DNA of 64,000 nucleotides from Pyrinomonadaceae bacterium (GCA_035281525.1 DATEDU010000396.1:2660-66659); one strand, 5' to 3'. Numbered from the stretch's first letter, positions 2,934 to 60,360 are shown. Notes: generated by a model from the sequence alone, not told the origin. A program made the numbers and translations.

Positions 2934-3037
2934 TGTAGGGGCGTATAAAGTCTGGAGTCGCGAGTCTGGAGTCTAGAGTCGCGGACTTCAGACTCCAGAC
3001 TCCAGACTCGCGACTCCAGACTCTATACGCCCCTACA
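2934..3037. repeat. Long inverted repeat (hairpin) built from GGAGTCT/GAGTCGC tandem units, between convergent genes
   Basis: Left arm tgtaggggcgtataaagtctggagtcgcgagtctggagtctagagtcgcgg pairs with right arm cagactccagactccagactcgcgactccagactctatacgcccctaca, with about one mismatch. It starts 16 nt after the stop at 2918 and ends 21 nt before the stop at 3058. Confidence 0.9.
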
Positions 3038-3057
3038 AATAACACGATAATTGCATC

Positions 3058-5274
3058 CTACTTCGACTTGTATTGGAAGGTCACTCTCGTCTCCTCTTCC
3101 ATCACAAGTGGCCGGACGAAGCGATACGACTTGCCCGCGCGCGGCACGTCCACTCTCACCGGGAGAACGCCTGCCACCTTTCGTTGAAGATTAAATACGT
3201 TCTGCGATGGCGCAGTCATTTGAGCCTCCCTGGCCTTACGCGCCTGCTGTTCGAACCTCCGCACCTCACGATCCGAAATACCACCGCCCGTGATTTGAAC
3301 CGTCTCAGTTACGCCGGCGACCTGAAGCGTCGTTCCCAAACGCGCCGGTTGCGAAGCCGACAGTTCCAGATCGTGCTGAGTGTTCATAAACCCCGGCGAT
3401 CCAATCGTGACTCTGACCGCGCCAGGCTGCATGCCTAAAACCGTCCATAGTCCTTCGCCATCAGTTCTCGCATTCAGCGTCACTCCAGTTTGAGTGTTGA
3501 TTACGCTAACCGTTGCGTTAGGCACTACCGCGCCATTCGGGTCAACTACGATTCCGCCGATTTGACCAGCTGCTAATTCACTGAGCTCAACGCCGTCAAG
3601 CGCCCAAACACTTGAATCAGTCCCGGCACCTTCAACGTCCAACGCAAGAACATTCTGTGCCGCTGCCGGAAAGAGCTCAGCCGCAAGCGCGTTCCCGCGG
3701 AACTGTTTGACCTCGAGCCGATCCGGCAAAGAGACTTCCCACGTTAACAAGTTGATCGGCACGTCCAACTTAGGAAGTCCCATTTCGTATGAGCCGCTCT
3801 TTGCAAAGCGAGTCCCGGCGCCCGTATACACGAACGACACTGTGTAGGCTCCGGAGGGAGTGAACCCAGTACGCATCAGTGGAACACGATTACCGTCTGG
3901 TCCAACAACCGGTTTGACTCTTTGACCTTCAACTTCAGCCGACACCAAAGTCGCACCCGGCGGTAACTCAACTTTGACAAACGGTTGCGCATGATTCCTT
4001 ACACGCAGTGTTACTTCGGTCAGAGACTTTCCTTCCACATTCATCAGAGTGGTGATAGTGGCGCGTTCGGCGAGGGCTGACAGCACCCGCGCATCGGGGA
4101 ATTGGGTCCACTCGAGTTGAAGTTTGGGCGAGTCGGTTGCACGGCGATTGTAACGAAACGCCGCCTGCAATGGATAACGAGCAAGGGAACGCGCGATCGC
4201 ACTTGCTTCACGTACGTCCATGCGTCGCAACCCTCCACTCTCAGTCGGAACCAACTCCATTGCACCAATGCCTTCAACCAAAAGCTCGCCGGTTTCGCGT
4301 TGTGTGCCGGTGAAGGAAAGCACTGGCGCGTCGACTTTGGACTCGCGATTGGAACGTTCGATCGCGACCAGGAATTGATGGTTGCGACGAGTTGGTTCAC
4401 GCACGTTGAGAATCAACACGCCTGCATCTGTTCGACTCGAATCGAGCGTGCTGCCGGTTACCTCAGTCAACTCAAAGCCGGCGGGTAGCGGCAACCTGAA
4501 TTCAACTGGCTCGCCTTGGACCACCGTCACGTCGCATAGAGCCGCAATGCGCTGTTGAGAATCGCCGACCGATACGACTGACTTGATGTCCGAAAGAAAA
4601 CGGACTTCGCGTTGAGCTACGGGCGCGGAAATCTCTCTCGTGGTCCACCAAACTTTCGCCGGTTTGCCAGGCTCGAGCGTCGCCTCGACAATCGTGCGCC
4701 CGTTTGCCGTATTCCGGCTTGTGATCAGTCCCGGTTCGACTCGCACATCGGCGTGATTGCCGGCGAGGTCGAGAACAAGCAGCGAACTGCCCGCTGCCGG
4801 GACAGGCACGACAAGAGAAGCACGTCCGGCTTCCACGGCTAAAGCTGCAGCTACGCTCAGCGACACCGAGAACCGCCCTGGGCCATTCAAGATCGCCGCA
4901 TGACTCAATCCTTCCTGCATTAGCGGCAGGGGACTCGTGGCTTGGCGTGCTTCAAGAAGTGTGAGTCCCGTTGTAAGTGGAACCTTGGTCGCTCTCTTAT
5001 CGAGAACCATGCCATCGATATCTACCGCGCCTGTGACGCGCTGGTCTTCAACGCGCAGTTTGAATGCGGCTTGCGACAACACGAATGGAACCGGCGGCGC
5101 ATCGGGTGTCTTTGGCTTGCGCGCCGCGAGCTCGATCAGGCGGTTATATTCGGAGAGTGACAATGTGACTGTTCCGGCCGCAGCGGAAGATGGGAGAGCC
5201 ACATCCGTTGGCGAATTTCGTTGGCCGTACGCAGCAGTTGCCAGCACCAATATCAGGATTATCGATATTCTCAT
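3058..5274 (-). CDS. Large secreted hypothetical protein with C-terminal carboxypeptidase-regulatory-like domain (paralog of 5271..7151)
   Basis: 738-aa ORF. Signal peptide MRISIILILVLATAAYGQ. CarboxypepD_reg-like segment GGIVVDPNGAVVPNATVSVINTQTGVTLNARTDGEGLWTVLGMQPGAVRVTI. Its ATG overlaps the stop of the upstream gene (ATGA at 5271-5274). Confidence 0.8.
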   Translation of the reverse strand: MRISIILILVLATAAYGQRNSPTDVALPSSAAAGTVTLSLSEYNRLIELAARKPKTPDAPPVPFVLSQAAFKLRVEDQRVTGAVDIDGMVLDKRATKVPLTTGLTLLEARQATSPLPLMQEGLSHAAILNGPGRFSVSLSVAAALAVEAGRASLVVPVPAAGSSLLVLDLAGNHADVRVEPGLITSRNTANGRTIVEATLEPGKPAKVWWTTREISAPVAQREVRFLSDIKSVVSVGDSQQRIAALCDVTVVQGEPVEFRLPLPAGFELTEVTGSTLDSSRTDAGVLILNVREPTRRNHQFLVAIERSNRESKVDAPVLSFTGTQRETGELLVEGIGAMELVPTESGGLRRMDVREASAIARSLARYPLQAAFRYNRRATDSPKLQLEWTQFPDARVLSALAERATITTLMNVEGKSLTEVTLRVRNHAQPFVKVELPPGATLVSAEVEGQRVKPVVGPDGNRVPLMRTGFTPSGAYTVSFVYTGAGTRFAKSGSYEMGLPKLDVPINLLTWEVSLPDRLEVKQFRGNALAAELFPAAAQNVLALDVEGAGTDSSVWALDGVELSELAAGQIGGIVVDPNGAVVPNATVSVINTQTGVTLNARTDGEGLWTVLGMQPGAVRVTIGSPGFMNTQHDLELSASQPARLGTTLQVAGVTETVQITGGGISDREVRRFEQQARKAREAQMTAPSQNVFNLQRKVAGVLPVRVDVPRAGKSYRFVRPLVMEEETRVTFQYKSK

Positions 5275-7151
5275 TTCGCACCTCGCTTTCGATCGCGTTG
5301 GAAGTCGAGCTCTACCACTGGTGTTTGGTTCTCACTCGTCAATTCCGAAACAAGAAAGACGGAAGGACCAAAATGCGGGAAGGCTACGCGGATTGGAAGA
5401 TTGCGCGCCGGTTTGGATGGCCGTTTTCCGTCGCCATGATGGGAAAGCAGTTGCTTAGCAGCATCCGCGACCGTCGGTTGGACTGCACTTTCAATCGTCG
5501 CTGAATTGCCGCCGCGCAGGACAGCCGATTCCGGCGAACGGAAAGGCTCAACACGGAAGTTTCCCGGAACCATGTTGATGCGAAAGAGAGGCGAGTGATG
5601 CAGCACTAGATTTGATTTGGAGATAGGAAGATCGACTGCGACTAACGAAACTCGAGCATGACCTTTGTCGACCCACGGCTGGCTGCGATCGAGGTATGCC
5701 ACTTCAACAACAAATGCAGCGGCATCTTCCCCCGATCTCGTTTTTTCCAATGGCAGCAACAACGAGCCATCCTGAGCACGTCCCGGTCTGATTGGGCGAC
5801 CGGTTACTGATGCACTCCACAACACGGCCGTCGCGGGAAGGTTGAGCTTGAGAAAGTTGCGCTGATTGTTGCGCACCGCGAACCGGCATTGGACCAGCAT
5901 CTTTCCGTCAGCAGCGATTAATGCGTTGTACTGCGCTTCTTCGATGTTTGCTGTCAGCACCGCTTGCGGCGTGTACCGCGCAATATCGACCGACAGCGTT
6001 CGTGACGATTTCCCTTCGGCTGGCGGAAGGCGATACGCGATCATCGAGGGCGAATGCCTGCTTGCGATCAGCCGGCCCAATTCTGAAGCTTCCGCTTCTT
6101 CAAGCCCGCTTGCCTGCCGATCCTTGATCTCACCTGCACCGAGAACCTCTACGGCTACGCCGCCAGTTTCGCGTTCAGCCCCGGGCAGACGGATCAGCGG
6201 CACGTCAAGTTTGCCCGCGCGTGGCAATCGCAACTCTCCACTCAAAGTGAATCGAGCTGTATCCAGCACCGGTTCGATGAAGACGACCTTCAGATCTCGT
6301 GCGGTCACTTCCCAATCAGCAACCGTTGCTCCGGAAACCTGATTCAAAGTGAACTGGTCGGGCAGCTCTACATGGATTTCCTGCGCCAGACCTTGAACCA
6401 CGTCGACTTGAACTTCGGCATTGATTTGAGTTGCGTCCTCACCCAACCCCACCAGCTCGGTGACGGTGCCTCTCAGCCTGAGCGGTTGCCGCGCTCGTTC
6501 ATCATCGACTTTGCGCCGCCAGGCGAATGTCAGCGGCTCGTTGCCGCGACCATTTGCGACCCAACGGCTGGCACCTGAATTTTCCGAATGCTCCAGCAGT
6601 AGCCCGCCGCTGACGTTGACTTCGATTCCTTGGCGCGATAACTCAACTGCTGCTCGCGAGACGGCTGAGTTGCTCACCGGTAACTTTAAAATGTCCGTTC
6701 CGGCAACAGTTTTGACGGGCGCCACGATCTTCAGAGTTATGACTGAGCGGCCCGTTCGCGAGAGAAGCAGCTCCCCACCGGCAGGACCCGTTTCTTTAGG
6801 GCGCGAGACCAGTGTCACTTCGCGACCATCGAGTTGCGCCTCGCGGACCATCAAGCCCTCGGGCATCGCTAACGTCACCCAACCATCCTTGATCACATCG
6901 ACTGTTAATCGAGCTTCACCCGAAGCGATGTCACCGTCGACTTTGAGGTCGTAGTCGATTCGGGTCAGAGTGGCTTCGACGGGAGGCGACTCAGGTGGTG
7001 AATCAGCAGGAACTGCAGCGCGCTTCAGGGCTATGTATTCGGAGACTGGAAGCACGACCCAGCCTGGTGTAGGTGACGTTGTGTTCTGGCCTAGAGCGTT
7101 AGTGCCGGCAAATAGAAAAGAGAGTGCCAGGCAGATGCGGAATAGTTTCAT
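5271..7151 (-). CDS. Large secreted hypothetical protein (paralog of 3058..5274)
   Basis: ORF 5271..7265. I prefer the internal ATG at 7151 (MKLFRICLALSFLFAGTNALGQ signal peptide), preceded by AGGAG. It shares N-terminal architecture with the downstream gene (VSEYIALKRAA vs LSEYNRLIELAA, and similar later blocks). Confidence 0.8.
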   Translation of the reverse strand: MKLFRICLALSFLFAGTNALGQNTTSPTPGWVVLPVSEYIALKRAAVPADSPPESPPVEATLTRIDYDLKVDGDIASGEARLTVDVIKDGWVTLAMPEGLMVREAQLDGREVTLVSRPKETGPAGGELLLSRTGRSVITLKIVAPVKTVAGTDILKLPVSNSAVSRAAVELSRQGIEVNVSGGLLLEHSENSGASRWVANGRGNEPLTFAWRRKVDDERARQPLRLRGTVTELVGLGEDATQINAEVQVDVVQGLAQEIHVELPDQFTLNQVSGATVADWEVTARDLKVVFIEPVLDTARFTLSGELRLPRAGKLDVPLIRLPGAERETGGVAVEVLGAGEIKDRQASGLEEAEASELGRLIASRHSPSMIAYRLPPAEGKSSRTLSVDIARYTPQAVLTANIEEAQYNALIAADGKMLVQCRFAVRNNQRNFLKLNLPATAVLWSASVTGRPIRPGRAQDGSLLLPLEKTRSGEDAAAFVVEVAYLDRSQPWVDKGHARVSLVAVDLPISKSNLVLHHSPLFRINMVPGNFRVEPFRSPESAVLRGGNSATIESAVQPTVADAAKQLLSHHGDGKRPSKPARNLPIRVAFPHFGPSVFLVSELTSENQTPVVELDFQRDRKRGAK

Positions 7152-7419
7152 TGTAGTTCTCCTGAATAGGTTCCTCGTGCCACTGGACGCGATACCCACC
7201 CGCAACTGCGGGTGGTTCTGACAGGGCACACTTCGAGGTTCACGGCAAACTTCAGGTTTTGCCATCGTGGGCTAAACGTAGTTTGGTTTTCGAATCGAGA
7301 CCGGCGTTGGTCTCAAGTTTTTTGTCTTATCTGACCATGCGGGGGAGACCGCGCGAGGTGTCTTGTCGGGCCTAAGATGCACGAAATCCGAAAAAAGGTA
7401 GCTTCGAGGCGCTGCTCAA

Positions 7420-8424
7420 TTGTTTCTCAGGCCTCTCGTCTTGCTTGATCACAAACTCCAAGCTAGCCTAGTCGCTATGCAAAATGCCTTTGCATTGCTC
7501 GTATTGCTCCAGGGAGAGACGCTGAGGAGCATCTGGTTCTATCTCAATCGCAAGCTCTCAATAGGGAACTTCCAGGTCTCAATAACGAGTCTGCTGGTGG
7601 GCCTGGCAGTCTTCGTCATCACCCTGCTGGTTGCACGCTCCGTTAGCGCAGTGCTCCAACGCCGGATCGATCGTCGCGAGAATCTCGATCCGGGAATACG
7701 CTACACGATTGTCAGGCTGACAAATTATCTCCTCATCACCATCGGCTTACTTATCGCGCTCAAGCAGGCTTTCAATATCGATTTGACTTCGATTGCGGTC
7801 GTCTTCACAGCTCTATCGGTTGGTATTGGCTTTGGCCTGCAGTACATCGCCGCTGACATCGCGTCCGGCTTCATTCTGCTGTTCGAACGTCCCATTCGCA
7901 TCGGGGATCGCGTCACGATCGATCAGGACGAAGGCGATGTGCAGAGCATCAGGCTACGGACCACGATCGTTTACACGAATGACCGCATTGCGATCATCGT
8001 TCCGAATTCCCGTCTGGTGAGTCAGCGAGTCATTAATTGGTCCTACGGCGGCTCACGCGCCAGAATTCCAATACCTGTTGCTGTCGCTCCGAATTCGGAC
8101 ATTGATTTGGTAACCCGGACGCTATTGGAAGCGGCTGATGGGATAGATCGCGTGGCGACGGATCATCCACCCAAGGTTCAGTTCCTCCGGTTCGGCGACT
8201 ACTCGCTCGATTTTCGGTTGTTGGTTTGGACGAGTGAGCCGAGCCGCCACCCGCAGATCCGCAGCGACATCAATTACCGCATTGCCCGACTGTTCCGCGA
8301 TCGTGGGATTGAGACTGCGCGACCGGTGCAGGAGCTTCGGATGGCGTCATTTCCCATGTCGAATGACAGTACGGCCAACTTAATGTCCGAGGAACGCTCA
8401 CCCACCAAGGAACAGCGCGATTAA
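7420..8424 (+). CDS. Mechanosensitive ion channel (MscS family)
   Basis: TM helices followed by IAADIASGFILLFERPIRIGDRVTIDQDEGDVQSIRLRTTIV, the MscS pore-helix/beta-domain signature. The start is uncertain; an alternative ATG lies at 7477. Confidence 0.85.
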   Translation: MFLRPLVLLDHKLQASLVAMQNAFALLVLLQGETLRSIWFYLNRKLSIGNFQVSITSLLVGLAVFVITLLVARSVSAVLQRRIDRRENLDPGIRYTIVRLTNYLLITIGLLIALKQAFNIDLTSIAVVFTALSVGIGFGLQYIAADIASGFILLFERPIRIGDRVTIDQDEGDVQSIRLRTTIVYTNDRIAIIVPNSRLVSQRVINWSYGGSRARIPIPVAVAPNSDIDLVTRTLLEAADGIDRVATDHPPKVQFLRFGDYSLDFRLLVWTSEPSRHPQIRSDINYRIARLFRDRGIETARPVQELRMASFPMSNDSTANLMSEERSPTKEQRD

Positions 8425-8469
8425 CTGAAAGTTTGCACAAAATTGCTGCTCAGTTTACGCTAGAAGCCC

Positions 8470-8491
8470 ACTGAGTGATTGTTCATTCAGT
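8470..8491. promoter_or_regulatory. Candidate TetR/FadR-type operator palindrome
   Basis: actgagtga-ttgt-tcattcagt is a near-perfect 9-bp inverted repeat, about 100 nt upstream of the TetR-acyl-CoA synthetase operon. TGAATGA-like half-sites. Confidence 0.35.
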
Positions 8492-8496
8492 CAGGT

Positions 8497-8588
8497 CATT
8501 GCCAATTGCCGATTGCTAAATGCCAATTGAAAAACAAGCATTTGGGATACGAATCTAATCGGCAATTGGCAATCGGCAATCGGCAAAT
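8497..8588. repeat. Inverted repeat of CAATTGCC/GATTGCC tandem units
   Basis: Left arm cattgccaattgccgattgctaaatgccaattg pairs with right arm aatcggcaattggcaatcggcaatcggcaaatg. It ends 7 nt before the ATG at 8595. Confidence 0.85.
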
Positions 8589-8594
8589 GACGTT

Positions 8595-9209
8595 ATGAGA
8601 TCAGCTCGAGCACTAAACTCCGTTCGGCCCGTCACTGGCGACAAGCGCGAAGCAATCCTACGCGCGGCCATCAGTGTGTTTGCTCATAACGGCTACTTCA
8701 ACTCTAAAGTCGCGGACATAGCGTCCGAAGCAGGCGTCGCCGACGGCACCGTGTATCTCTACTTCAAGAGTAAAGAAGAGATCCTTCATTCAATCTTTGA
8801 TCGCTCAGTCGAAGCAGCACTCGCGGAATTTCGTAGACAACTCAAGGACATCAGCGATCCCAGTGACAAGCTGCGGCGGATCGCGCTTTTGCATCTGGAA
8901 TGGCTGGGAGCAGATCGCGATTTGGCGGTCGTCTTTCAAGTGGAACTGCGAGGCTCGACCAAATTCATGGAAGAGTTCTCTGCTGCAGGTTTCGCTGAAT
9001 ACCTGGGATTGATTCGAGCCACGATCGAAGAAGGTCAGAGCGCGGGAGTATTCCGATCCGATCTGAATGCCAAGGTCGGCGCCAAGATCTTCTACGGTGC
9101 TCTCGACGAGATGGCGACCAACTGGATTCTCTCCAAACGCCGGTACAAATTGGCGCCGATGGCTGACCAAGTGCTCGATATTTTTCTGAATGGAGTTAGT
9201 ACGAAGTGA
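8595..9209 (+). CDS. TetR/AcrR family transcriptional regulator (FadR-like)
   Basis: N-terminal HTH ILRAAISVFAHNGYFNSKVADIASEAGVADGTVYLYFKSKEEIL. Its stop overlaps the start of the acyl-CoA synthetase gene (GTGA at 9206-9209). Confidence 0.9.
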   Translation: MRSARALNSVRPVTGDKREAILRAAISVFAHNGYFNSKVADIASEAGVADGTVYLYFKSKEEILHSIFDRSVEAALAEFRRQLKDISDPSDKLRRIALLHLEWLGADRDLAVVFQVELRGSTKFMEEFSAAGFAEYLGLIRATIEEGQSAGVFRSDLNAKVGAKIFYGALDEMATNWILSKRRYKLAPMADQVLDIFLNGVSTK

Positions 9210-11071
9210 ACTCCATTACTCAGATCAATTCCCAACCAACCTTTGCTCCCGCTGTGTCCCGAGCAATGAAGCCAGGCGAGCCGTCCACCCTCGTCGAAGC
9301 CTTTGAACAAATCGAGCGATTGCACAAGCGGCCGGATACGCTCAACTACAAGGAGGGCGGCCGCTGGAACCCAATCTCGTCCGATGAAATGCTGACACGA
9401 ATCCGTCGCATCGCCGCCGGCCTGTATTCGCTCGGCATTTATCCTGGTGACCGCGTCGCAATACTGTCTGAGAGTCGACCTGAGTGGACGCTGACTGATG
9501 GCGGTTGTCTGTTTGCCGGTGCGATTGACGTTCCGATTTATCCGACGCTGACGCCGCCGCAGGTCTGTTACATTTTGAAGGACTCGGGCGCTCGCGTTCT
9601 CGCACTCAATGATCACAACAAATTCCTGGAACTGAAGGAAATCCTGGCGGAGTGCCCAGCCGTTCAACATGTCATTTTCTTTAATTCCGAAGGGGTTAGC
9701 CCAGAGGACGGATTAACGCTTGCGGAACTCGAGGCGCGCGGAGAGCGGCAATTGAAATCGCAGCCTGACCTCGTAAACACGCTGGCGCGACGAATTTCAA
9801 AAGACGATCTCGCGACCTTTATTTACACGTCCGGAACTACGGGTGAGCCTAAAGGCGTGATGCTCACTCACGCCAATCTCGTGTCTAATTTGGTCGACGC
9901 AGCCAATCCTCTCTCGTTCGGAAAGAATGATGTCGTACTTTCGGTGTTGCCTCTATCGCATATCTTCGAGCGAGAGGCGATGTACATGTACTTGCATCAG
10001 GGAATGGCGGTGTATTTCGCGGAGTCGCTCGACACGATTGGGCCAAACCTGCGCGAAGTTCGGCCCACCATCATGGTGGGCGTCCCGCGGATCTTTGAAA
10101 AGATTTATGAGCGCATCAAGGAGCGCGTGGCAGAGAAGGGAAAGCTCAATGTCGCGATGCTGAATTGGGCTGTCTCTGTCGCGCGAGAATATGCGAGGTA
10201 CGTGCTCGATCGTAAAAGTGTACCGGCGGGACTGAAGCTGAAGCATTGGTTAGCCGATAAGTTGGTTTACTCCAAGTGGCATGCGGCGTTTGGTGGTCGC
10301 ATCAGGTTGCTGGTTTCCGGCGGCGCTGCCTTAGCCGAGGAACTGTCCTACATTTATTTGGGCGCCGGCATACCGATTATTCAGGGATATGGACTGACGG
10401 AGACATCACCGGTCATCACTGCAAGCAGTCTGGAAGACAATCGCGTCGGCACCGTCGGCAAGCCGATCCCGAACGTCGAGGTGCGTATCGCGGCTGACGG
10501 CGAAATCGAAACGCGCGGGCCGAACGTGATGAAAGGCTATTACAACAAACCCGAGGAGACGCGCGCCGTATTTACCGACGACGGCTGGTTCAAGACTGGT
10601 GACGTAGGAATGATCGACAGCGACGGTTACCTGCGCATCACTGACCGGAAAAAGGAACTGTTTAAGACGTCGGGCGGAAAATATATTGCTCCGCAGGTGC
10701 TTGAACAGAAGATCAAAGGCTCGCGTTTCGTCAGCCAGGTGGTGCTAATCGGCAATGAACGGAAGTTTCCTGCAGCTTTGATCGTCCCGAACTGGCAACT
10801 GATTGACTCATACGTTCAATTGAAGGGAATCGAACCAGCCTCTAGAGCAGAGCTCTGCTGCCATCCACGCATTATCGACTTGTTTGAGCGTCAAATTGCC
10901 GCCCTCACGCCGGATGTCGCGCAGTACGAACGCGTAAAGAAGATCGCATTATTGGAAAATGAAATGACGATTGAAGGCGGCGAGCTCACACCTACGCTCA
11001 AAGTCAAGCGTCGCGTGATTGAACAGAAGTACAAGCCGGTTATCGATCGACTCTACGCGGAAGAGAATTAG
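9206..11071 (+). CDS. fadD: Long-chain fatty acid-CoA ligase (AMP-dependent synthetase/ligase)
   Basis: AMP-binding motifs IYTSGTTGEPKGVMLTHANL, GYGLTETSP, TGDVG..D.DGYLRITDRKKELFKTSGGKYIAPQ. Confidence 0.9.
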   Translation: MNSITQINSQPTFAPAVSRAMKPGEPSTLVEAFEQIERLHKRPDTLNYKEGGRWNPISSDEMLTRIRRIAAGLYSLGIYPGDRVAILSESRPEWTLTDGGCLFAGAIDVPIYPTLTPPQVCYILKDSGARVLALNDHNKFLELKEILAECPAVQHVIFFNSEGVSPEDGLTLAELEARGERQLKSQPDLVNTLARRISKDDLATFIYTSGTTGEPKGVMLTHANLVSNLVDAANPLSFGKNDVVLSVLPLSHIFEREAMYMYLHQGMAVYFAESLDTIGPNLREVRPTIMVGVPRIFEKIYERIKERVAEKGKLNVAMLNWAVSVAREYARYVLDRKSVPAGLKLKHWLADKLVYSKWHAAFGGRIRLLVSGGAALAEELSYIYLGAGIPIIQGYGLTETSPVITASSLEDNRVGTVGKPIPNVEVRIAADGEIETRGPNVMKGYYNKPEETRAVFTDDGWFKTGDVGMIDSDGYLRITDRKKELFKTSGGKYIAPQVLEQKIKGSRFVSQVVLIGNERKFPAALIVPNWQLIDSYVQLKGIEPASRAELCCHPRIIDLFERQIAALTPDVAQYERVKKIALLENEMTIEGGELTPTLKVKRRVIEQKYKPVIDRLYAEEN

Positions 11072-11097
11072 TTCTATTCATTTCTTCCGCATCGGCA

Positions 11098-11228
11098 CTA
11101 TCCACAGATTACGCAGATTACACAGATAAGAACTGTAATGGGGTAGGTAAGTAGTTTGTCGGAGAGCTCGTTGAAAATTGCCTGCTATTTTTGTTTGAAT
11201 CTGCGTAATCTGTGTAATCTGCGGATAG
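11098..11228. repeat. Inverted repeat of CACAGATTA(C) units with ~70-nt loop (same family as 60258..60360)
   Basis: Left arm ctatccacagattacgcagattacacagat (11098-11127) pairs with right arm atctgcgtaatctgtgtaatctgcggatag (11199-11228). It lies between convergent stops at 11071 and 11229. Confidence 0.9.
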
Positions 11229-11900
11229 TTATCCGGGCACGCGCTCGGGTGGTAACTTAGCCATCAAAGAATCGAGGATTCGTTCGGCAGCGGCGCGGCC
11301 GGCTTGTTTAATGGCTTGCTCCATGTAGGGCCAGTTGTTCCGTCCCGGTATCCCGCCGGGGTTCAGGATAACGCCACCGCGACCGTATCCTGCGGGGTAC
11401 GTCCTGCCGCTGGCTGCGATTTTGGCGGTGGTCGGTGTGTAGACCACGTAGTCGAGGTAGAGCTCGTTAAGTTCTATCTGGTTGTCCATTCTCATTCTGT
11501 CCGACCCCAACTTTAACCAGACGACGTACGCTTCCTTTTCGGCCTTGGCAGTCTTGATGGCTTCGCCGCGACTTACGTCGCGATGAGTCACGGTTACATC
11601 GACATTAGGTCCCGCGTCCAGCCGGTCAACGCATCCCCTCACTGCGCTGCTCGTGAGGTATGACGGGATACCTGCGATGTATCCACTGTCGGCGCCTACA
11701 ATGAGTTTCAGTGCCGGCTTGGAGTTTTCCGCTGGTTTGGTGGAGGCTGGCTCAGGTGTCGGCGTAGGCGCGGGCGTAGCCGCAGCTTTTGGTAAACGCC
11801 TGCCAGATTGGGCAAGCGCGGTTGGCTCCGAGAGCGCAGTCAACAAACACGCAGCGATTAGAGCAAAACTAGAAACGGCGAGCGTTCGCGAATGCCTCAT
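11229..11900 (-). CDS. Hypothetical secreted protein
   Basis: 223-aa ORF. Signal peptide MRHSRTLAVSSFALIAACLLTALSEPTALAQ and a Pro/Thr/Ala-rich linker. No family recognised. Confidence 0.65.
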   Translation of the reverse strand: MRHSRTLAVSSFALIAACLLTALSEPTALAQSGRRLPKAAATPAPTPTPEPASTKPAENSKPALKLIVGADSGYIAGIPSYLTSSAVRGCVDRLDAGPNVDVTVTHRDVSRGEAIKTAKAEKEAYVVWLKLGSDRMRMDNQIELNELYLDYVVYTPTTAKIAASGRTYPAGYGRGGVILNPGGIPGRNNWPYMEQAIKQAGRAAAERILDSLMAKLPPERVPG

Positions 11901-11994
11901 ACGTGCGCAGTTTAGACCGTTACTGATAACAACTCAACAATTGGCCAGAGTTAGTGGTGGGGTAATTCTGTTCGGCTAACGGAATGCGTAAATG

Positions 11995-12107
11995 AACCGC
12001 CAAGACGCCAAGCACGCCAAGAATGCAAAAGAGCTGTTATCGAATGGCGAGATACCTCGGTGTTCGACTAGCCTTCGTTCTTAACGCAGCTTGGCGTCTT
12101 GGCGGTT
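11995..12107. repeat. Inverted repeat of GCCAAGAC/GCCAAGCA units
   Basis: Left arm aaccgccaagacgccaagcacgccaag pairs with right arm cttggcgtcttggcggtt. It is flanked by a weaker outer inverted repeat (ggggtaatt at ~11959 / aattacccc at ~12132). Confidence 0.8.
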
Positions 12108-12181
12108 CGATTTTCCGAGTTGGCCACACCCAATTACCCCAATACCCCAGAGTTCAATACCTGTGATGGTAAACTGAATTT

Positions 12182-12877
12182 GTGCTTCCATTAATTATCA
12201 CTGACATTCACGAGCAAGCTCGCGCGACACGGTCGTTTGACCTGATGCCCGAGCGCAACTCACATACGAACGTCACTCACGGCGTTTCCTTCGTGCCGGG
12301 CCAGGTGGCGGTGCTACAGATCCCGGGCGAGCCGCCGACTTATTTTGCCTTCGCCAGCGCTCCGGAAGATCCCGAACTTGAAGTTCTCGTAAAACAAAAA
12401 CCCGGCGCTGGCACATTTATCTTTGATATGCAGAAGGGTGACCGGATTCAACTGGTCGAGGTCGCGGGACACGGCTTTGCGCTTGACGAACAGAAGAATA
12501 AGGATCTTGTGTTTATCGCGATGGGAACAGGAGTGGCACCGCTGCGGTCGGCGTTGCGGCATGTTCTACGCCGCAGGGAGGACTATGGTCAACTCGTGGT
12601 GCTCTACGGCGCCCGCACCCCTGACGATTTTTGCTACCGGGATGAAACGGAAACTTGGAAAGACGAGGGAGTCGAACTTCGTCAGGTGATCTCGAGGCCT
12701 GACGGGCACGATTGGTCGGGACCGACGGGTTATGTTCAGTCGCTGTTGGACCACGTGTTGCCGTCACTCAAGTCACCCATAGCGTTGATTTGCGGCTCGC
12801 CTGAGATGATCGAGCAAACATGCGACCGCCTGCAACAGATGGGCTTTGCTCCGGAGGAGATTTTGACGAATTACTGA
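12182..12877 (+). CDS. FAD/NAD(P)-binding oxidoreductase (ferredoxin-NADP reductase-like fold)
   Basis: FNR-family motifs LVFIAMGTGVAPLRSALRHVL and LICGSPEMIE. GTG start. Confidence 0.75.
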   Translation: MLPLIITDIHEQARATRSFDLMPERNSHTNVTHGVSFVPGQVAVLQIPGEPPTYFAFASAPEDPELEVLVKQKPGAGTFIFDMQKGDRIQLVEVAGHGFALDEQKNKDLVFIAMGTGVAPLRSALRHVLRRREDYGQLVVLYGARTPDDFCYRDETETWKDEGVELRQVISRPDGHDWSGPTGYVQSLLDHVLPSLKSPIALICGSPEMIEQTCDRLQQMGFAPEEILTNY

Positions 12878-12878
12878 T

Positions 12879-13006
12879 GGTCTTAGGACTTTGGTCTTAG
12901 AGGTCTTTGGTCTTTGGTCTTTGTTTCGAGACGACGCTCAAGTCCAAAGTACAAAGTACAAAGTCCAAAGTCCAAAGCCCTAAGACCAAAGACCAAAGAC
13001 CAAAGA
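12879..13006. repeat. Inverted repeat of GGTCTTT / AAAGACC (and AAGTCCA/AAGTACA) units
   Basis: Left arm ggtcttaggactttggtcttagaggtctttggtctttggtctttg pairs with right arm caaagccctaagaccaaagaccaaagaccaaagac. It starts 2 nt after the stop at 12877 and ends 14 nt before the ATG at 13020. Confidence 0.9.
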
Positions 13007-13019
13007 CAGAGGGATCTCC

Positions 13020-14261
13020 ATGCACCGATTGTTCACCGGCTTTCTGTTGACTGCGTTTCTTATCACCGCCGCGTTCGCCCAAACGCAACAGCCCGTTCCG
13101 TTTCTGAACGAGGTCAAGTCGCTCCAGAACGACGCGCGCGTGAAAGCGGCCAACGACTACATCGATAAAAACCGCGAGGAGATTCTGCGCGAGTGGATTG
13201 CCATTACTGAAATCAACGCGCCCTCGGGAGAAGAGCAGGAACGCGCGCGATACGTCGAGAGCCTCTTGCGCAAATACCGGTTACAAGACATGCGTTACGA
13301 CTCAGCCGGCAATCTCATCGCGGTGCGCAAAGGAACTGGCGGTGGTCCAGTCGTCGTCTTTGACGCTCATCTGGACACGGTTTTCCAACCGGGCTTGAAA
13401 ATCAAGGCCGAAGTGCGCGACGGCCGAGTTTATGCACCGGGAGTCGGCGATGACACTCGGAACATCGAAGCGCTGCTCGCAACAATTCGAGCACTCGACG
13501 AAGCCAACATTTCGACTAAAGGCGATCTCATCTTTGTCTTCACGACAGAAGAAGAGACAAACATGAACGGCGCCGAGCAGTTCGTTAAAGATAACAAGGG
13601 CAAAATCGATTATTACATCGCGCTCGACGGAGGTTACGAGGGATTCACTTACGCAGGCATCGGTATCACTTGGTATCGCCATCACTTCATTGGCCCCGGT
13701 GGCCACACCCGATCACGGACGCCGCCCTATTCAGCTAGTCTCCCTCTGGCACGTGCTATTTCGAGGATTTACCGGTTGAATGTTCCAACTAATCCGCCGT
13801 CTCACGTGAACATCGGCATGTTGGGCGGGTCAGAAGTGGTCAACGCCAAAGCAGCGGATGCGTGGTTCACCGTTGACTTGCGCTCGACGAGTAAACAGGT
13901 GATCGACGACCTCGACAAGAAGATCGCGACCATACTGGAACAGGAAGCTAGGCGCGTTGGAATGAAGGTCAAGACCGATGTTATCTCATCAGCGCCGCCC
14001 GCGGTGATTCCCGGCAATGAAAACTCGCATCTGGTGAAGGTCGCCGAAGCCGTGCATCGGGCGATGGGTTTTGATCCGCCGATCACACCGACTGGCTCGA
14101 ATAACTCAAGCGCAGCTCTACTGGGAGGAGTGTCTTCGATCTCCACGGGTGCTGGTCCGTGTCGAGACGCACACGCTCTGACTGAGAACTGTGAGATCGA
14201 ACCGCTCTATACAGGGATAAAGAAGATTCTACTGCTCGCGCTAGCCTTGGCTAAAGTCTAA
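13020..14261 (+). CDS. M20/M25/M40 family metallopeptidase (secreted)
   Basis: Signal peptide. Metal-binding motifs VVVFDAHLDTVF, GVGDDTRN, FVFTTEEE. Confidence 0.85.
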   Translation: MHRLFTGFLLTAFLITAAFAQTQQPVPFLNEVKSLQNDARVKAANDYIDKNREEILREWIAITEINAPSGEEQERARYVESLLRKYRLQDMRYDSAGNLIAVRKGTGGGPVVVFDAHLDTVFQPGLKIKAEVRDGRVYAPGVGDDTRNIEALLATIRALDEANISTKGDLIFVFTTEEETNMNGAEQFVKDNKGKIDYYIALDGGYEGFTYAGIGITWYRHHFIGPGGHTRSRTPPYSASLPLARAISRIYRLNVPTNPPSHVNIGMLGGSEVVNAKAADAWFTVDLRSTSKQVIDDLDKKIATILEQEARRVGMKVKTDVISSAPPAVIPGNENSHLVKVAEAVHRAMGFDPPITPTGSNNSSAALLGGVSSISTGAGPCRDAHALTENCEIEPLYTGIKKILLLALALAKV

Positions 14262-14262
14262 C

Positions 14263-14378
14263 CATTGCCGATTGCCAATTGCCAATTGCCAATTGCCAAT
14301 TGCCGATTCGCGTCTCATCAGAGACAATCCGCAATCCGCAATCCGCAATCCGCAATTGGAAATTGGCAATCGGCAATA
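14263..14378. repeat. Inverted repeat of CAATTGCC/GATTGCC plus AATCCGC units
   Basis: Left arm cattgccgattgccaattgccaattgccaattgccaattgccgatt pairs with right arm aatccgcaatccgcaatccgcaatccgcaattggaaattggcaatcggcaatag. It starts 2 nt after the stop at 14261. Confidence 0.85.
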
Positions 14379-14594
14379 GCTTTACACTCACCTTACGAAT
14401 CTGCTACTTTGTGCCTTCCCCTCCTCCCAAGTTAGCCCAGTCGCAGTAAGTGAGCCCAGCGGCATTAACTGTTAGGCATATCTCACCAACATAAATCACT
14501 TGGTGGTGACACATCCTTGTCTGCGGCTCTTCTCCACCTAGTGCAGCTATCGGCGGTGCGGGCTGCCTTACCTCAACAACTGAATGGAGGGACA

Positions 14595-17336: not shown

Positions 17337-17338
17337 GT

Positions 17339-17450
17339 AGGAGTCTAGAGTCTGGAGTCTAGAGTCTGGAGTCAGGATCAGGAGACCAGAAGGCAGGGGC
17401 AGGAGCAGGAGCGGGTCTCGGTTATGCCTGCTCCTGCCACCTGCTCCTGC
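17339..17450. repeat. GAGTCT(A/G) tandem tract followed by GGCAGGAGC/GCTCCTGCC hairpin
   Basis: The tract gagtctagagtctggagtctagagtctggagtc has no local partner. It is followed by ggcaggggcaggagcaggagc-N13-gcctgctcctgccacctgctcctgc. Confidence 0.85.
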
Positions 17451-17507
17451 AACTGAAAAACCGCGAACGCCTAGGGGGTATTTGAAAACTTCACATCAGG
17501 CATTTAC

Positions 17508-17680: not shown

Positions 17681-17683
17681 CTT

Positions 17684-47716: not shown

Positions 47717-47812
47717 AGCGCAACTCCTCTCCAGTTGTGATGGATGGTAATCCGAAAAGATGGACGGGATTATAGTGCCAAACCTTCGTGAGTCCTAGTG
47801 GTAATAGTAAAA

Positions 47813-47902
47813 GCTAACAGCGAACAGCCAACAGCTAACAGCGGACAGCAAACAGCGGTTAGGCCGTTGGCTGTTGAGCTGGTAGCTGTTCGCGGGTTGC
47901 TG
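47813..47902. repeat. Inverted repeat of (A/G)ACAGC units
   Basis: Left arm gctaacagcgaacagccaacagctaacagcggacagcaaacagcgg pairs with right arm ccgttggctgttgagctggtagctgttcgcgggttgctg. Confidence 0.85.
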
Positions 47903-55298: not shown

Positions 55299-55302
55299 GG
55301 AA

Positions 55303-55370
55303 GTGATAAGTGATGAGTGATAAGTGATAAGGACGGAAAACCTTATCACTCATTACTTATCACTTATCAC
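55303..55370. repeat. 30-bp-stem inverted repeat of GTGATAA units inside the MoxR cluster
   Basis: Left arm gtgataagtgatgagtgataagtgataagg pairs with right arm ccttatcactcattacttatcacttatcac across the 8-nt loop acggaaaa. It starts 5 nt after the stop at 55298 and ends 44 nt before the ATG at 55414. Confidence 0.9.
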
Positions 55371-55413
55371 TAACAAAAAGTTCTTCGAATCTTAGTTTTC
55401 TTCTGAACCTAAT

Positions 55414-57707: not shown

Positions 57708-57741
57708 GGGCAACAGGGAAAACAGGGAAATAGGGGAACGG
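57708..57741. repeat. CAGGGAA/AGGGGAA tandem tract (left arm of an imperfect inverted repeat flanking the four-helix-bundle gene)
   Basis: gggcaacagggaaaacagggaaataggggaacgg. The core aataggggaa (57729-57738) is perfectly complementary to ttcccctatt (58185-58194). Confidence 0.7.
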
Positions 57742-57772
57742 TGACATTTTAAACCTCACACCTCAGAAAAGG

Positions 57773-58174
57773 GTGAACCTCATGAATGAGAAAAAACAGA
57801 TTCGCAGTTTCGAAGACCTATTGGTATGGCAAATGGGTATTGAACTCGTAAAACGCATTTACGTCGGGACGGCTTCAGGCCCGTTCAATAGAGACTTCGG
57901 ACTGCGAGACCAAATCCGACGCGCGTCAGTATCAATTCCCACTAATATTGCCGAGGGGTTTGAGCGCTTCTCCCGGAAGGAGTATTTGCAATTCTTAAAT
58001 ATTGCAAAAGGTTCTGCCGGAGAATTACGCAGCCTCCTTCGAGTAGCGATCGAGATCAACTATATTGAGTCCGCTGCTTACGACGAACTACGAGACCGTG
58101 TCACAAAACTAAGTGCATTCCTCTTTCAATCAAATGAAGAAAATCAGGCAGTCTCACGCAAACGCGTAAACTAG
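57773..58174 (+). CDS. Four-helix-bundle protein (23S rRNA intervening-sequence protein / Avd-like family)
   Basis: FEDLLVWQMGIELVKRIY...SVSIPTNIAEGFERFSRKEYLQFLNIAKGSAGELRSLL is the family signature. GTG at 57773, or ATG at 57782. Confidence 0.9.
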   Translation: MNLMNEKKQIRSFEDLLVWQMGIELVKRIYVGTASGPFNRDFGLRDQIRRASVSIPTNIAEGFERFSRKEYLQFLNIAKGSAGELRSLLRVAIEINYIESAAYDELRDRVTKLSAFLFQSNEENQAVSRKRVN

Positions 58175-58175
58175 A

Positions 58176-59168
58176 TTAAGGCTTTTCCCCTATTAACCTG
58201 TTCCCCTCTTCCCCTGTCTCTCGCCCGGCCAACAACAAATAGGAATACAGCGAGATCCCAGTGATTGCCGCAATGCTGTACTTGATCCGCCGATCAATCG
58301 GAGCCGGAGAAATAAATGCTTCGATGGTCGCAGCAATGACCAGCAGCACCGCAACCCCCACCATTAACCGCACGGCAGACTTGCCCCGTGTCTTCAATGC
58401 GTCGGCACGTGAAAGATCACCTGGCATCAACAGAGCACTGCCGATCAAAAGCCCGGCGCCTCCAGCCATGAAGATACAGGAGAGCTCAACCACACCGTGG
58501 CCCACGACGAACGTCATGAGATCGTTGCCGAAGCCGGCTCGATAGGTGAGAGCCACTACGGACGCGAGATTTGCTCCGTTGTACGCTAGGAAGAATAAGG
58601 TGCCGACGCCAAACATCGCTCCAAACGCAAAAGTATAGATCGTGACCTGAATGTTGTTGGTGACGATGAAGCTTGCGCCCAGTTGGTTCGCCTCGTTTAA
58701 ATTCTCCCACCAATGCGTTTTCGTTTCGATATAGACCTCACGAAATCCCGCGGGAACTCCGACCAGTTCTGAGAACTCCGGATCCAGTTGCGTGCCAACA
58801 AAGCCGATGACGCTAAACAGGGCAAAGACTGCAAACGCCAAAGCGGTATAGCGCCAGGTTTCGCGAAATGTTCGCGGAAACTCGCGAGCGAAAAAGTTTC
58901 TGATGCGTCGCGTTCCCTGGGCATCGGCGCGATAAATGCGGCCATGGGCACGAATGACGAGACTGTTCAGGTAATTGATGAGTCGTGGGTCGCGCGACTC
59001 AGCGCGCGCAATCGCAAGATCCGATGCTGTGCGCCGATAGATTCTACCCAGCTCGCGGACTTCCTCACGATGCAGGCGCCTGATCGAAGTTGTGTCGAGC
59101 AACGTCATCAAATCTTCCAGACGCTGCCAGGCATTCTTGCGATTGTTGATGAATTGATCGTGAGACAT
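58176..59168 (-). CDS. Stage II sporulation protein M-like (SpoIIM/DUF95) membrane protein
   Basis: ORF extends to 59189 (TTG); I prefer the ATG at 59168 (MSHDQFINNRK). NNIQVTIYTFAFGAMFGVGTLFFLAYNGANL is typical of the SpoIIM family. Six TM helices. Confidence 0.75.
   Translation of the reverse strand: MSHDQFINNRKNAWQRLEDLMTLLDTTSIRRLHREEVRELGRIYRRTASDLAIARAESRDPRLINYLNSLVIRAHGRIYRADAQGTRRIRNFFAREFPRTFRETWRYTALAFAVFALFSVIGFVGTQLDPEFSELVGVPAGFREVYIETKTHWWENLNEANQLGASFIVTNNIQVTIYTFAFGAMFGVGTLFFLAYNGANLASVVALTYRAGFGNDLMTFVVGHGVVELSCIFMAGGAGLLIGSALLMPGDLSRADALKTRGKSAVRLMVGVAVLLVIAATIEAFISPAPIDRRIKYSIAAITGISLYSYLLLAGRETGEEGNRLIGEKP
58185..58220. repeat. TTCCCCT/TTCCCCTG tandem tract (right arm)
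   Basis: ttcccctattaacctgttcccctcttcccctgtctc. It overlaps the last ~15 codons of the minus-strand gene 58176..59168. Confidence 0.7.
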
Positions 59169-59172
59169 AACA

Positions 59173-59355
59173 TCATTGGCGATTGCCAATTAAAACATTG
59201 CCGATTGCCAATTGCCGATTGCCGATTTAGGATTTCCCGCTACTCGAAACTATTTCGTCAAAGTATTTGAACCTGCGGATTGTCTTCAATTGGCAATCGG
59301 CAATTGGCAATTGGCAATGGAAACAATTGGCAATCGGCAATCGGCAATCGGCAAT
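59173..59355. repeat. Inverted repeat of CAATTGCC/GATTGCC units with ~60-nt loop
   Basis: Left arm cattggcgattgccaattaaaacattgccgattgccaattgccgattgccgatt pairs with right arm caattggcaatcggcaattggcaattggcaatggaaacaattggcaatcggcaatcggcaatcggcaatg. Confidence 0.9.
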
Positions 59356-60255
59356 GCCCTTATTGAGTGTGTACCAAACTTTAGCGAGGGCCGCAAGATT
59401 GATACTGTTGAGCGGCTCGTCGCCGCCATAGGCGCAGTCGAAACCGCGTGTGTCCTCGACACGCATGTCGATCCCGATCACAACCGCTCCGTGATTACTT
59501 TTGTAGCCGCGCCGTCAATGGCCGTCGAGGCATCTTTCCGGGCTGTGGCGCTCGCGGCCGAACTCATCGACATGCGCCAACATACGGGCCAGCATCCCCG
59601 GCTTGGCGCTACCGATGTGCTGCCGTTTGTTCCTGTGCGCGACGTGACCCTCGACGATTGTGCGGGCCTCGCGCATCAGGCAGGCGAACGGATCGCGCGC
59701 GAACTATCGATTCCAGTTTATTTTTATGAACGTGCTGCCGTCAGGGCTGATCGAGTAAACCTTGAAGACGTGCGTCGTGGCGGTCTCGAACTCTTGCGAG
59801 GCCAGATAGCGACTGAGCCCGCGCGCGCACCTGACGCGGGGCCACTCGTGGTCCACCCAACCGCCGGCGCCATTGCGGTTGGCGCTCGTCCATTTCTCAT
59901 TGCTTTCAATATGAATCTGACTTCTCGAGACCTCTCGATAGCTCGGCAGATCGCTCGTTCAGTACGCGCCCGTCATGGTGGTTTGCCTTTTGTTAAGGCG
60001 CTGGGCTTTGATTTGAGCAGCCGCGGTCTAGTTCAAGTTTCAATGAACCTGGTTAGCTACGAGCAGACTGGAATGAAGCAGGCCTACGCAGCAGTTCGGC
60101 GCGAGGCTGACAAGCTGGGAGTCGAGATAGCGGCGACTGAGATCGTGGGGCTTGTGCCTGAGAATGCCCTGGACAGGAGTGCGGAGTATTTTCAAAAGCT
60201 GGAACACTTCTCAGAGGAGAAGGTATTGGAAACGCGCCTGCGGATTTGTGAGTAA
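59317..60255 (+). CDS. Glutamate formimidoyltransferase (FtcD N-terminal domain family)
   Basis: ALIECVPNFSEGRKIDTVERLV is the family N-terminal signature. The only in-frame ATG just upstream is 59317, inside the repeat. The ORF track start at 59212 is repeat read-through. Confidence 0.8.
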   Translation: METIGNRQSAIGNALIECVPNFSEGRKIDTVERLVAAIGAVETACVLDTHVDPDHNRSVITFVAAPSMAVEASFRAVALAAELIDMRQHTGQHPRLGATDVLPFVPVRDVTLDDCAGLAHQAGERIARELSIPVYFYERAAVRADRVNLEDVRRGGLELLRGQIATEPARAPDAGPLVVHPTAGAIAVGARPFLIAFNMNLTSRDLSIARQIARSVRARHGGLPFVKALGFDLSSRGLVQVSMNLVSYEQTGMKQAYAAVRREADKLGVEIAATEIVGLVPENALDRSAEYFQKLEHFSEEKVLETRLRICE

Positions 60256-60257
60256 GG

Positions 60258-60360
60258 ATCTATCCACAGATTACACAGATTACTTAGAACAGTTAAGAAA
60301 TGATAGCCGCATTCAGCCAGCTGTTTTTTGGACTCTGTTTAATCTGTGTAATCTGCGGAT
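60258..60360. repeat. Inverted repeat of CACAGATTA(C) units (second copy of the 11098..11228 family)
   Basis: Left arm atctatccacagattacacagattac pairs with right arm aatctgtgtaatctgcggat. It lies between convergent stops at 60255 and 60360. Confidence 0.9.

Follow-up and report, generated by a model that had tools for sequence, protein, structure and literature searches.

The window analysed here, a stretch of 64,000 nucleotides from a Pyrinomonadaceae bacterium (GCA_035281525.1 DATEDU010000396.1:2660-66659), carries a set of long intergenic hairpins whose arms are tandem arrays of short units, one pair of which encloses a gene of the protein family PF05635. The host is a soil acidobacterium of the Pyrinomonadaceae (Acidobacteriota, Blastocatellia), as orthologues of its M20 peptidase (13020-14261) that are 72-83% identical were found in 80 loci from metagenome-assembled genomes (MAGs), mostly labelled Pyrinomonadaceae. 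A cyanobacterial origin was rejected, since highly iterated palindrome 1 (HIP1) is at chance level in the window and the relatives are Pyrinomonadaceae. We count 14 elements, 13 of them free of any open reading frame (ORF) and the fourteenth a PF05635 cassette (Table 1). On a gene map built from longest ORFs, the window has 27 intergenic gaps that measure 40 nt or more; tandem-unit hairpins occupy 14 of these and fill about 2.3 of the 5.2 kb of intergenic DNA, and most of the gaps that bear them hold little else. The intergenic DNA of the window is crowded, with several classes of hairpin existing side by side.

Table 1. Tandem-unit elements of the window; z, folding-energy score against shuffled sequence; MFE, minimum free energy.
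Position	Element	Setting	Details
2934-3037	GGAGTCT/AGACTCC hairpin	convergent genes	47-nt arms, 96% complementary; MFE -90; z -14/-18; heptamer arrays inside outer stem TGTAGGGGCGTATA...TATACGCCCCTACA
8497-8588	ATTGCC(A/G) hairpin	7 nt upstream of TetR start codon	z -6.3/-7.7
11097-11229	CACAGATTA-family hairpin, 9-nt unit	convergent genes	z -9
11948-12151	composite nested hairpin, 204 nt (core 11995-12107)		outer arms GGGGTAATT/CCCAATTAC, inner arms CGCCAAGA/TCTTGGCG
12878-13006	GGTCTTT/AAAGACC hairpin	fills gap between NAD-binding and M20 peptidase genes	z -9.8
14263-14378	ATTGCC(A/G) hairpin	2 nt past M20 stop codon	z -10/-13; CAATCCG x4 in right arm
17339-17450	GGAGTCT direct array (17339-17373), then small GCAGGA/CCTGCT hairpin (17393-17450)		z -4.8
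17859-17907	extra CCTGCT array
18503-18617	GAGTTTC/GAAACTC hairpin	upstream of thioredoxin start	44-nt arms, 89% complementary; z -9.8/-10.5
28630-28748	ATAGGACC-family hairpin	abuts glycosyltransferase stop codon	z -7.4
31524-31716	largest hairpin		left units drift GGAGTCT to GGAGTCA to GAAGTCA; 57-nt arms, 81% complementary; z -8.8
47812-47902	weaker AACAGC(G/T) hairpin		z -5.4/-6.0
55302-55371	GTGATAA/TTATCAC hairpin, 8-nt loop	3 nt past stop codon	z -11
57708-58220	PF05635 cassette	plus strand	CAGGGAA/GGGGAA-type array 57708-57740; gene 57785-58174; TTCCCCT-type array 58185-58220
59173-59365	ATTGCC(A/G) long hairpin	divergent SpoIIM-like and FTCD genes	z -11.7
60258-60360	CACAGATTA-family hairpin	convergent genes	z -7.7

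A preliminary description of this DNA had proposed long hairpins with tandem-unit arms on inspection alone, and Tandem Repeats Finder, an inverted-repeat finder and RNAfold agree that they are real at the 13 ORF-less loci. At every cited locus Tandem Repeats Finder detects arrays in pairs, with units of 6-9 nt, most often 7 nt, and 21 of the 44 arrays in the window have a period of 7; the inverted-repeat finder joins them into arms 29-57 nt long, with a complementarity of 81-96% and a distance of 8-100 nt between them, and RNAfold folds them into single long stems with minimum free energies of -40 to -101 kcal/mol. The proposed check of folding energy came out clearly, with z-scores of -4.5 to -18 on both strands against 100 dinucleotide-preserving shuffles per locus. 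Twelve inverted array pairs occur in the real window, as against none in five mononucleotide shuffles of it. The possibility of an assembly artefact was ruled out, as the hairpins are present in independent assemblies: a 15-kb ENA contig (L001) with 99.6% identity over 3011-18059, an independent short-read contig (L002) that is 100% identical over 12079-14290, hairpins included, and the relative L163. More than 12 unrelated units are found together in this one window.

The architecture is less uniform than was first described. The GGAGTCT family is represented by hairpins at 2934 and 31524, while 17339-17373 taken alone is a direct array standing beside a GCAGGA/CCTGCT hairpin. The hairpin described at 11995-12107 is real but is merely the core of a larger composite, and the CAGGGAA arrays at 57708 and 58185 are indeed inverted but form no empty hairpin, as they enclose a 129-aa PF05635 gene. 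The arms are also not exact mirror images of each other: the right arm of 31524-31716 has been expanded as a 21-nt super-unit, and the four CAATCCG units in the right arm at 14263 mismatch the opposite arm. The idea that the two arms co-evolve strictly is therefore not sustained.

We surveyed the window together with 82 loci, 1.3 Mb in all (two near-identical contigs, the others being 80 MAG loci of Pyrinomonadaceae type), using a detector based on Tandem Repeats Finder, which returned 64 pairs of inverted arrays, 7 being the period in 40 of these; over all loci examined, the ORF-less inverted pairs number 78, and 55 have this period. The families ATTGCCG, GGTCTTT, CACAGATTA, GGAGTCT and GAGTTTC were found again in dozens of related genomes, and the units of the window seen in other species include AATCGGC/AATTGCC, AAAGACC, AAACTCG, AATCTGTGT, ACCTATAGG and AAGACGCC. 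In a pattern search the conserved termini TCCACAGATTACGCAGATT...GTAATCTGTGGA delimit 13 elements in 11 genomes at non-orthologous sites, and a second pair, ATTGCCGATTGCC...GGCAATCGGCAAT, delimits elements from about two dozen loci, unrelated soil metagenome contigs included. The termini of the hairpin at 11097-11229 match the copy at 60258 as well as copies in 11 other genomes. These comparisons show multi-copy families common to Pyrinomonadaceae species. Beyond the phylum, an ORF-less hairpin in Nostoc is built of GGAGTCA/GAAGTCA units, as are the window hairpins at 2934 and 31524.

Syntenic contigs from relatives allowed us to follow single sites; their nucleotide identity to the window is mostly about 90-95% for L163 and L169, about 88% for L164 and about 69-81% for L166, L168, L170 and L171. 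The preliminary description had asked whether orthologous gaps differ in the presence of hairpins and in unit number, and they do both. Breaks in the alignments coincide exactly with the hairpins, and in the comparison with L163 and L169 three hairpins are missing with sharp edges. L163 lacks the hairpin at 8497, with sharp edges, and the one at 11097, where it has a gap of 36 nt; the genes flanking 11097 overlap in the outgroups L166 and L168, which indicates that this hairpin was gained in the lineage of the window. All 204 nt of the composite at 11948-12151, flanked in the window by the 8-bp direct repeat CCAGAGTT, are missing in L163, and the corresponding gaps in L166 and L168 are 131-133 nt long (lengths only, unaligned). 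The overlapping outgroup genes at 11097 and the short gap at 11948 together point to at least two gains. At 59173 the hairpin is present in L169, reduced in L171 and missing in L170.

Other sites differ in the number of units or in the family that occupies them. At 12878 the L163 hairpin keeps the loop of the window copy and has fewer units in each arm, and L001 lacks 9 nt of the left arm, so that unit-number differences are seen even at 99.6% identity; L001 also has a 26-nt insertion in the CCTGCT array of the 17339 region, where the GGAGTCA and GCAGGA arrays are common to L164, and L163 has a shorter form of the hairpin at 18503. At the 14263 site, after the stop codon of the M20 gene, the ATTGCC arms recur in L163 and their loop houses a nested GGTCTTT hairpin; the place is taken by a CACAGATTA hairpin in L164 and by half of one in L168, and in more distant species it is either empty or filled by a GTAGGGGCG-type palindrome or by a hairpin of CATTTGA, CAGTGGT or TCTCTGCG. 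At 2934, L163 has a plain palindrome of the GTAGGGGCG type with no heptamers; in the window this outer stem surrounds GGAGTCT arrays. An orthologous GTGATAA hairpin is found at 55302 in L171, where a GGTCTTT hairpin occupies the site in L170. At 60258 the CACAGATTA family also occupies the corresponding site of the distant L170 and L171, the L171 copy having another hairpin nested in it, while the closest relative, L169, has an unrelated hairpin. In all, three sites are held by a different family.

Gain, loss, replacement and nesting thus occur on the time scale of about 5% divergence, and the arms lengthen and shorten by whole units, as replication slippage predicts. The presence or absence of whole hairpins in relatives at about 94-95% identity, together with the overlap of outgroup genes, indicates that they were gained recently and can be dispensed with. 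They behave as mobile-like DNA that is present in many copies and can be spared, not as regulatory structures fixed to a locus. Very many homologues of the M20, FTCD and PF05635 proteins lie on contigs that reach only about 1-2.5 kb, roughly the length of a single gene, and L169 begins inside an ATTGCC hairpin, which fits with short-read assemblies of soil Acidobacteriota breaking at the hairpins, so that these would be under-represented in MAGs.

The ORF of the cassette (57785-58174) encodes 129 aa and matches PF05635, "23S rRNA intervening-sequence protein", a four-helix bundle related to Avd, at a Pfam E-value of 2e-35. The cassette is placed between DUF58 and SpoIIM-like genes and is missing in L170, which has a gap of 36 nt there, and in L171, which has one of 50 nt. 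The SpoIIM-like ORF appears to take its last 15 or so codons from the downstream array, 58185-58220. L171 has a PF05635 cassette of a second type, its arms being TTTTGAT/ATCAAAA, in the gap between MoxR and DUF58 (3789-4288), a gap that measures 18 nt in the window and 5 nt in L170. PF05635 has 7,501 homologous proteins at E <= 1e-5. Of 66 usable metagenome loci with close homologues of the window gene, the majority show an array of GGGGAAA type upstream and one of TTTCCCC type downstream, 45 of the 66 passing a strict Tandem Repeats Finder test. The loop lengths of all inverted pairs are bimodal: a PF05635 ORF is present in 61 of the 65 loops of 300-600 nt, and none of the 84 short ORF-less loops contains PF05635 coding sequence or remnants of the gene. 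The 446-nt "loop" at 17413-17858, checked for a decayed PF05635 ORF, gave no Pfam match.

Inverted arrays of 7-8-mers also flank PF05635 genes in Nostoc (four cases, two of them in N. punctiforme), Riemerella, Stanieria and Gemmatirosa, so that such flanked genes occur in Acidobacteriota, Cyanobacteriota, Bacteroidota and Gemmatimonadota. A PF05635 locus of Azospirillum, which matches 23S rRNA in Rfam, is a true 23S rRNA intervening sequence (IVS), and its arms are tandem heptamers (GAGGACG/GATGACA). The architecture of inverted arrays with a PF05635 gene in the loop is thereby shown to span five phyla, the classical 23S rRNA IVS included. In 100 kb of Nostoc plasmid sequence the inverted pairs enclose three of three four-helix-bundle genes, all other pairs being ORF-less or situated at those same three loci. 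Two plasmids of Nostoc sp. ATCC 53789 encode a PF05635 protein 64-68% identical to the acidobacterial one, also between GGGGAAA arms; on one of them, pNsp_c (L172), the 68% identical four-helix-bundle protein lies at 598-975 with GGGGAAA/TTTCCCC arms, a likeness which suggests that the whole cassette may have been transferred between phyla. In Pseudanabaena the arrays at the PF05635 gene are direct, not inverted: on a plasmid of P. galeata (L174, 440-1070) the gene stands between cas6 and cas4, with (AAAGCTA)x17 upstream and (AAAGCCA)x10 downstream in direct orientation. Two other PF05635 loci showed no clear arrangement of arrays. Our literature search, which did not cover the older cyanobacterial papers, found no report of inverted heptamer arrays as a general frame of PF05635 genes and no description of inverted heptamer-array hairpins in Acidobacteriota.

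On balance we lean towards the view that the elements are selfish foldback repeats, formed of inverted arrays of 6-9-nt units round a variable centre, growing by slippage, with stems probably of the type cut by RNase III, and resembling IVSs, the short tandemly repeated repetitive (STRR) sequences of cyanobacteria, and the hairpin-forming doublets of repetitive extragenic palindromic (REP) sequences called REPINs. As selfish elements that are not autonomous they would be spread by copying or recombination, with a preference for sites within or beside hairpins already present. The complementarity of their arms, which had been taken to imply selection on the stem or concerted evolution of both arms, would be kept by homogenisation within arrays and by the youth of the copies rather than by selection: both arms are arrays of one unit and so can pair in any register, slippage homogenises them, and many copies are young. 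Transcripts would contain RNA duplexes of 25-60 bp that, like IVS stems, may be cut by RNase III or block 3' exonucleases, and such handling of the duplex could uncouple neighbouring genes rather than bring about canonical termination.

Several observations weigh against this view. Among the window ORFs that were scanned none was identified as a transposase or as another enzyme of mobilisation, a direct repeat resembling a target duplication is present at one of four gain/loss junctions and at none of the other three, and the data do not tell gain by copying apart from recombination or gene conversion between loci. Copies of the same family have unrelated loops, alike only at the edges, which is unlike typical families of miniature inverted-repeat transposable elements (MITEs). 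For some units both arm polarities occur, the unit coming first or its complement coming first; as an inverted repeat is identical on both strands, the orientation of an arm relative to transcription is meaningless and polarity alone is defined. The statistics on location, finally, rest on heuristic gene calls by longest ORF.

The same elements could instead be intrinsic terminators lacking a U-tract, or stabilisers of 3' ends, that evolved in place, with selection acting on the RNA stem and tandem units being the way in which stems grow. Their placement speaks for this: on the heuristic gene calls, array pairs are found in 17 of 165 convergent gaps (10.3%), 28 of 506 co-directional gaps (5.5%) and 3 of 134 divergent gaps (2.2%; convergent versus divergent, Fisher p = 0.005), a frequency that roughly tracks the number of gene 3' ends per gap, and 9 of the 14 window hairpins start no more than 5 nt from a stop codon. 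The array pairs are mostly intergenic, 11 of 58 being scored as overlapping an ORF and at least one of these wrongly. The first 20 kb show no excess of sites resembling canonical terminators (22 found, 23.9 expected), and some hairpins are kept at orthologous sites down to about 75% nucleotide identity. The early proposal of placement at gene ends holds as a clustering near 3' ends, with exceptions: at least one hairpin (59173) lies between divergent genes and another (18503) beside a start codon, and these divergent or 5' placements are difficult to reconcile with terminators. So is the absence of hairpins in genomes about 94-95% identical and in outgroups where the genes overlap at the site, and so is the presence of the same families and termini at unrelated loci in many species. 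Only one of the 14 hairpins, 2934 on the minus strand, has a T-rich tail (at least 6 T in the 8 nt after the stem), in agreement with the early remark that most lack a U-tract; the stems measure 25-60 bp against the usual 5-20 bp of rho-independent terminators, and the window does possess one textbook U-tract terminator, at 44273-44306. Selection on a stem in mRNA should bias mismatches towards G-U pairs on the sense strand, yet a per-hairpin tally over eight co-directional cases gives 14 sense against 19 antisense G-U pairs, so that selection at the level of RNA is unsupported, and with it, given that close relatives dispense with the hairpins, the reading of arm complementarity as a mark of selection. 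REP and MITE elements have the same 3'-end bias and are nevertheless not terminators. That the hairpins are tolerated mainly at gene 3' ends is clear from the counts; that they are terminators we consider unlikely.

A wider proposal is that ORF-less hairpins, STRR arrays and rRNA IVSs are one pan-bacterial class of element, whose full form would be a PF05635 gene within inverted heptamer arrays, the arrays serving as a signal for processing or spread on which the PF05635 protein acts, and whose ORF-less members would be derivatives that have lost their cargo, as MITEs derive from transposons. It is hinted at by ORF-less hairpins that share their unit with a nearby cassette (in L143/L145, N. 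punctiforme and Nostoc ATCC 53789) and by the match of the window's GGAGTCA/GAAGTCA unit to the arms of a Nostoc cassette. We hold this unification to be doubtful.

Neutral mutation might also produce such structures with no movement between loci, by slippage within small palindromes together with intrastrand template switching (quasipalindrome correction). The polymorphism in unit number at 99.6% and at about 94-95% identity is what this process predicts, as is the independent expansion of single arms seen in the 21-nt super-unit and the CAATCCG run, and at 2934 the arrays lie inside an older GTAGGGGCG palindrome that is array-free in L163. Identical termini TCCACAGATTACGCAGATT...GTAATCTGTGGA at non-orthologous sites, the sharp gain of the composite hairpin of 204 nt and the exchange, at a single site, of one family for another are all left unexplained by it, and as a full account we judge it distinctly improbable.

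Least of all do we expect the arrays to be regulatory, non-selfish binding sites, on DNA or RNA, for a protein that reads 7-nt repeats, of the cold-shock type or PF05635 itself: a limited set of units is kept across genera and even phyla (GGGGAAA arms with the 68% identical protein in acidobacterium and Nostoc, GGAGTCA/GAAGTCA in the window and Nostoc), the arms at 55302 look, by eye, better conserved than the flanking genes (about 77% nucleotide identity), and a heptamer-binding factor has been speculated upon for Nostoc and Beggiatoaceae (PMC4679880; bioRxiv 2022.06.06.494920), but so many unrelated units in one window, the dispensability of the hairpins between close relatives and the failure to identify a binding protein make this very unlikely.

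Further features of the window lie beside these elements. Long intergenic hairpins with non-tandem arms occur at 18885-18998, 20112-20208, 34038-34210, 44360-44440 and 17590-17625, some in families found in relatives; among these families, ACCGCTTGCGGTAGCCAGCGCTCA is nested within an L171 hairpin and CCGTTCGGAGCGGAA is present in L166, and the hairpin at 20112-20208 includes the GTAG-like CCGCGGTAG/CTACCGCGG. A 30-nt unit (CATTCGCGAACGCCTTCGGCGTTCAAAACA) is repeated five times in tandem at 17684-17836, each copy with its own small hairpin GAACGCC TTCG GGCGTTC, within a complex 590-nt gap between M36 protease and thioredoxin genes. A large exopolysaccharide cluster on the minus strand (20216-37114; priming glycosyltransferase, amidotransferase of the XrtA/PEP-CTERM type, glycosyltransferases, methyltransferase and polysaccharide export protein) houses two tandem-unit hairpins, 28630 and 31524, both between co-directional genes. 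The gene model at 11229-11979 is ambiguous, with either a 223-aa minus-strand ORF (11229-11900) or, as in L001 and L163, a 137-aa minus-strand ORF and a 100-aa plus-strand ORF (11677-11979); neither alternative has a Pfam match, and the choice sets whether the hairpin at 11948-12151 follows a stop codon or sits in a divergent gap.

The preliminary description had found the architecture unrecognisable as CRISPR arrays, as REP sequences or their bacterial interspersed mosaic elements (BIMEs), or as MITEs. The first two of these exclusions stand, and Rfam holds no described family for it (no match at the gathering threshold; a permissive search returned only eukaryotic microRNA precursors, which are generic hairpins). 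Precedents nevertheless exist in the inverted heptamer arrays around PF05635 genes, in true 23S rRNA IVSs and, ORF-less, in Nostoc, the classical home of STRR sequences. All 14 window elements have, as IVSs do, complementary termini that form a long stem round a variable centre with an optional PF05635 ORF, and 57708-58220 has exactly the design of an IVS with its PF05635 gene. Tandem heptamers in the termini (Azospirillum, Coxiella) and a sporadic distribution are also common to both. The Coxiella IVS has a stem cut by RNase III and two to three GACAGAT heptamers at its 5' end, variable between strains (PMC4990558). The window elements differ from IVSs in lying between protein-coding genes and not in helix 25 or 45 of 23S rRNA, an Rfam search of the window having found no rRNA, and in that 13 of the 14 have no ORF.

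Arrays of heptamer repeats became known around 1990, and the named units of STRR1-3, CCCCAGT, TTGGTCA and CAACAGT, differ from those of the window. Like the published arrays, the window elements include intergenic tandem arrays of 7 nt at many loci, with many units per genome and variable copy number (PMC4679880; bioRxiv 2022.06.06.494920), and Nostoc plasmids hold ORF-less inverted-array hairpins, some with GGGGAAA or GGAGTCA/GAAGTCA units. The published arrays (cyanobacteria, Beggiatoaceae with TAACTGA, some Bacteroidetes) are direct and mostly upstream of start codons (PMC4679880; bioRxiv 2022.06.06.494920), and only 1 of 170 sets in 'Maribeggiatoa' is inverted (PMC4679880), whereas the rule in the window is a pair of inverted arrays forming a hairpin near a stop codon, in another phylum.

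REPINs, REP/BIME sequences and terminal-inverted-repeat (TIR) repeats, which REP-associated tyrosine transposases (RAYTs) mobilise, share with the window elements intergenic hairpins of 60-200 nt, several families per genome, a bias towards 3' ends and a spacer less conserved than the ends. REPINs are mobile hairpin-forming doublets that insert into or beside existing ones (PMC3116915), and each of their arms is a single palindrome tagged with GTAG (PMC3733652). A REP is marked by an unpaired GTAG or CGTC tetranucleotide at one end of its palindrome and by a cognate RAYT gene lying between copies of that repeat. The window arms are arrays of short units and not a single palindrome of 20-40 nt, and the GTAG tag occurs only in the outer stem at 2934 (TGTAGGGGCG), the 12 other termini being without it. 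A family of GTAG-tagged palindromes (CTGTAGGGGCGGCCCTCCGTGGCCGCCC), with an outer stem as in 2934, was seen downstream of genes in L045, L047, L062, L074, L027 and L163 (290-365). A tblastn search with an IS608 TnpA query found one RAYT, in L015. This RAYT/IS200-like tyrosine transposase gene (17231-17602) has the REP CCCGGCGTTGAAACGCCGGG with GGCGCTACGCGCC on both sides, a canonical REPtron in a Pyrinomonadaceae MAG, and the CCCGGCGTTGAAACGCCGGG REP also lies downstream of the M20 gene in the same genome. These RAYT-flanking REPs are non-tandem, unlike the window arrays, and form a separate system.

Copies of a MITE share an interior derived from an insertion sequence, whereas loops of same-family copies in the window are unrelated, and CRISPR arrays have repeats of 23-50 nt with unique spacers, whereas the units here are 6-9 nt long, contiguous and paired with an inverted array. 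The Foldback (FB) transposons of Drosophila have long inverted terminal repeats made of short tandem units around a centre that is variable or absent and sometimes contains genes; they are eukaryotic, with much longer arms and with transposase genes for which no counterpart was found here, and the likeness is one of architecture only. The function of heptamer arrays was still called unresolved in papers of 2015-2022 (PMC4679880; bioRxiv 2022.06.06.494920), and likewise that of rRNA IVSs and of free-standing PF05635 genes. In the genome described here three features, the heptamer arrays, the IVS-type design and the PF05635 gene, meet, and the comparative data present them as one dynamic class. 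The kinds themselves are known and no new category is called for; the main interest of this real and striking feature lies in a link, open to test, that would tie heptamer arrays to intervening sequences and to PF05635 genes.

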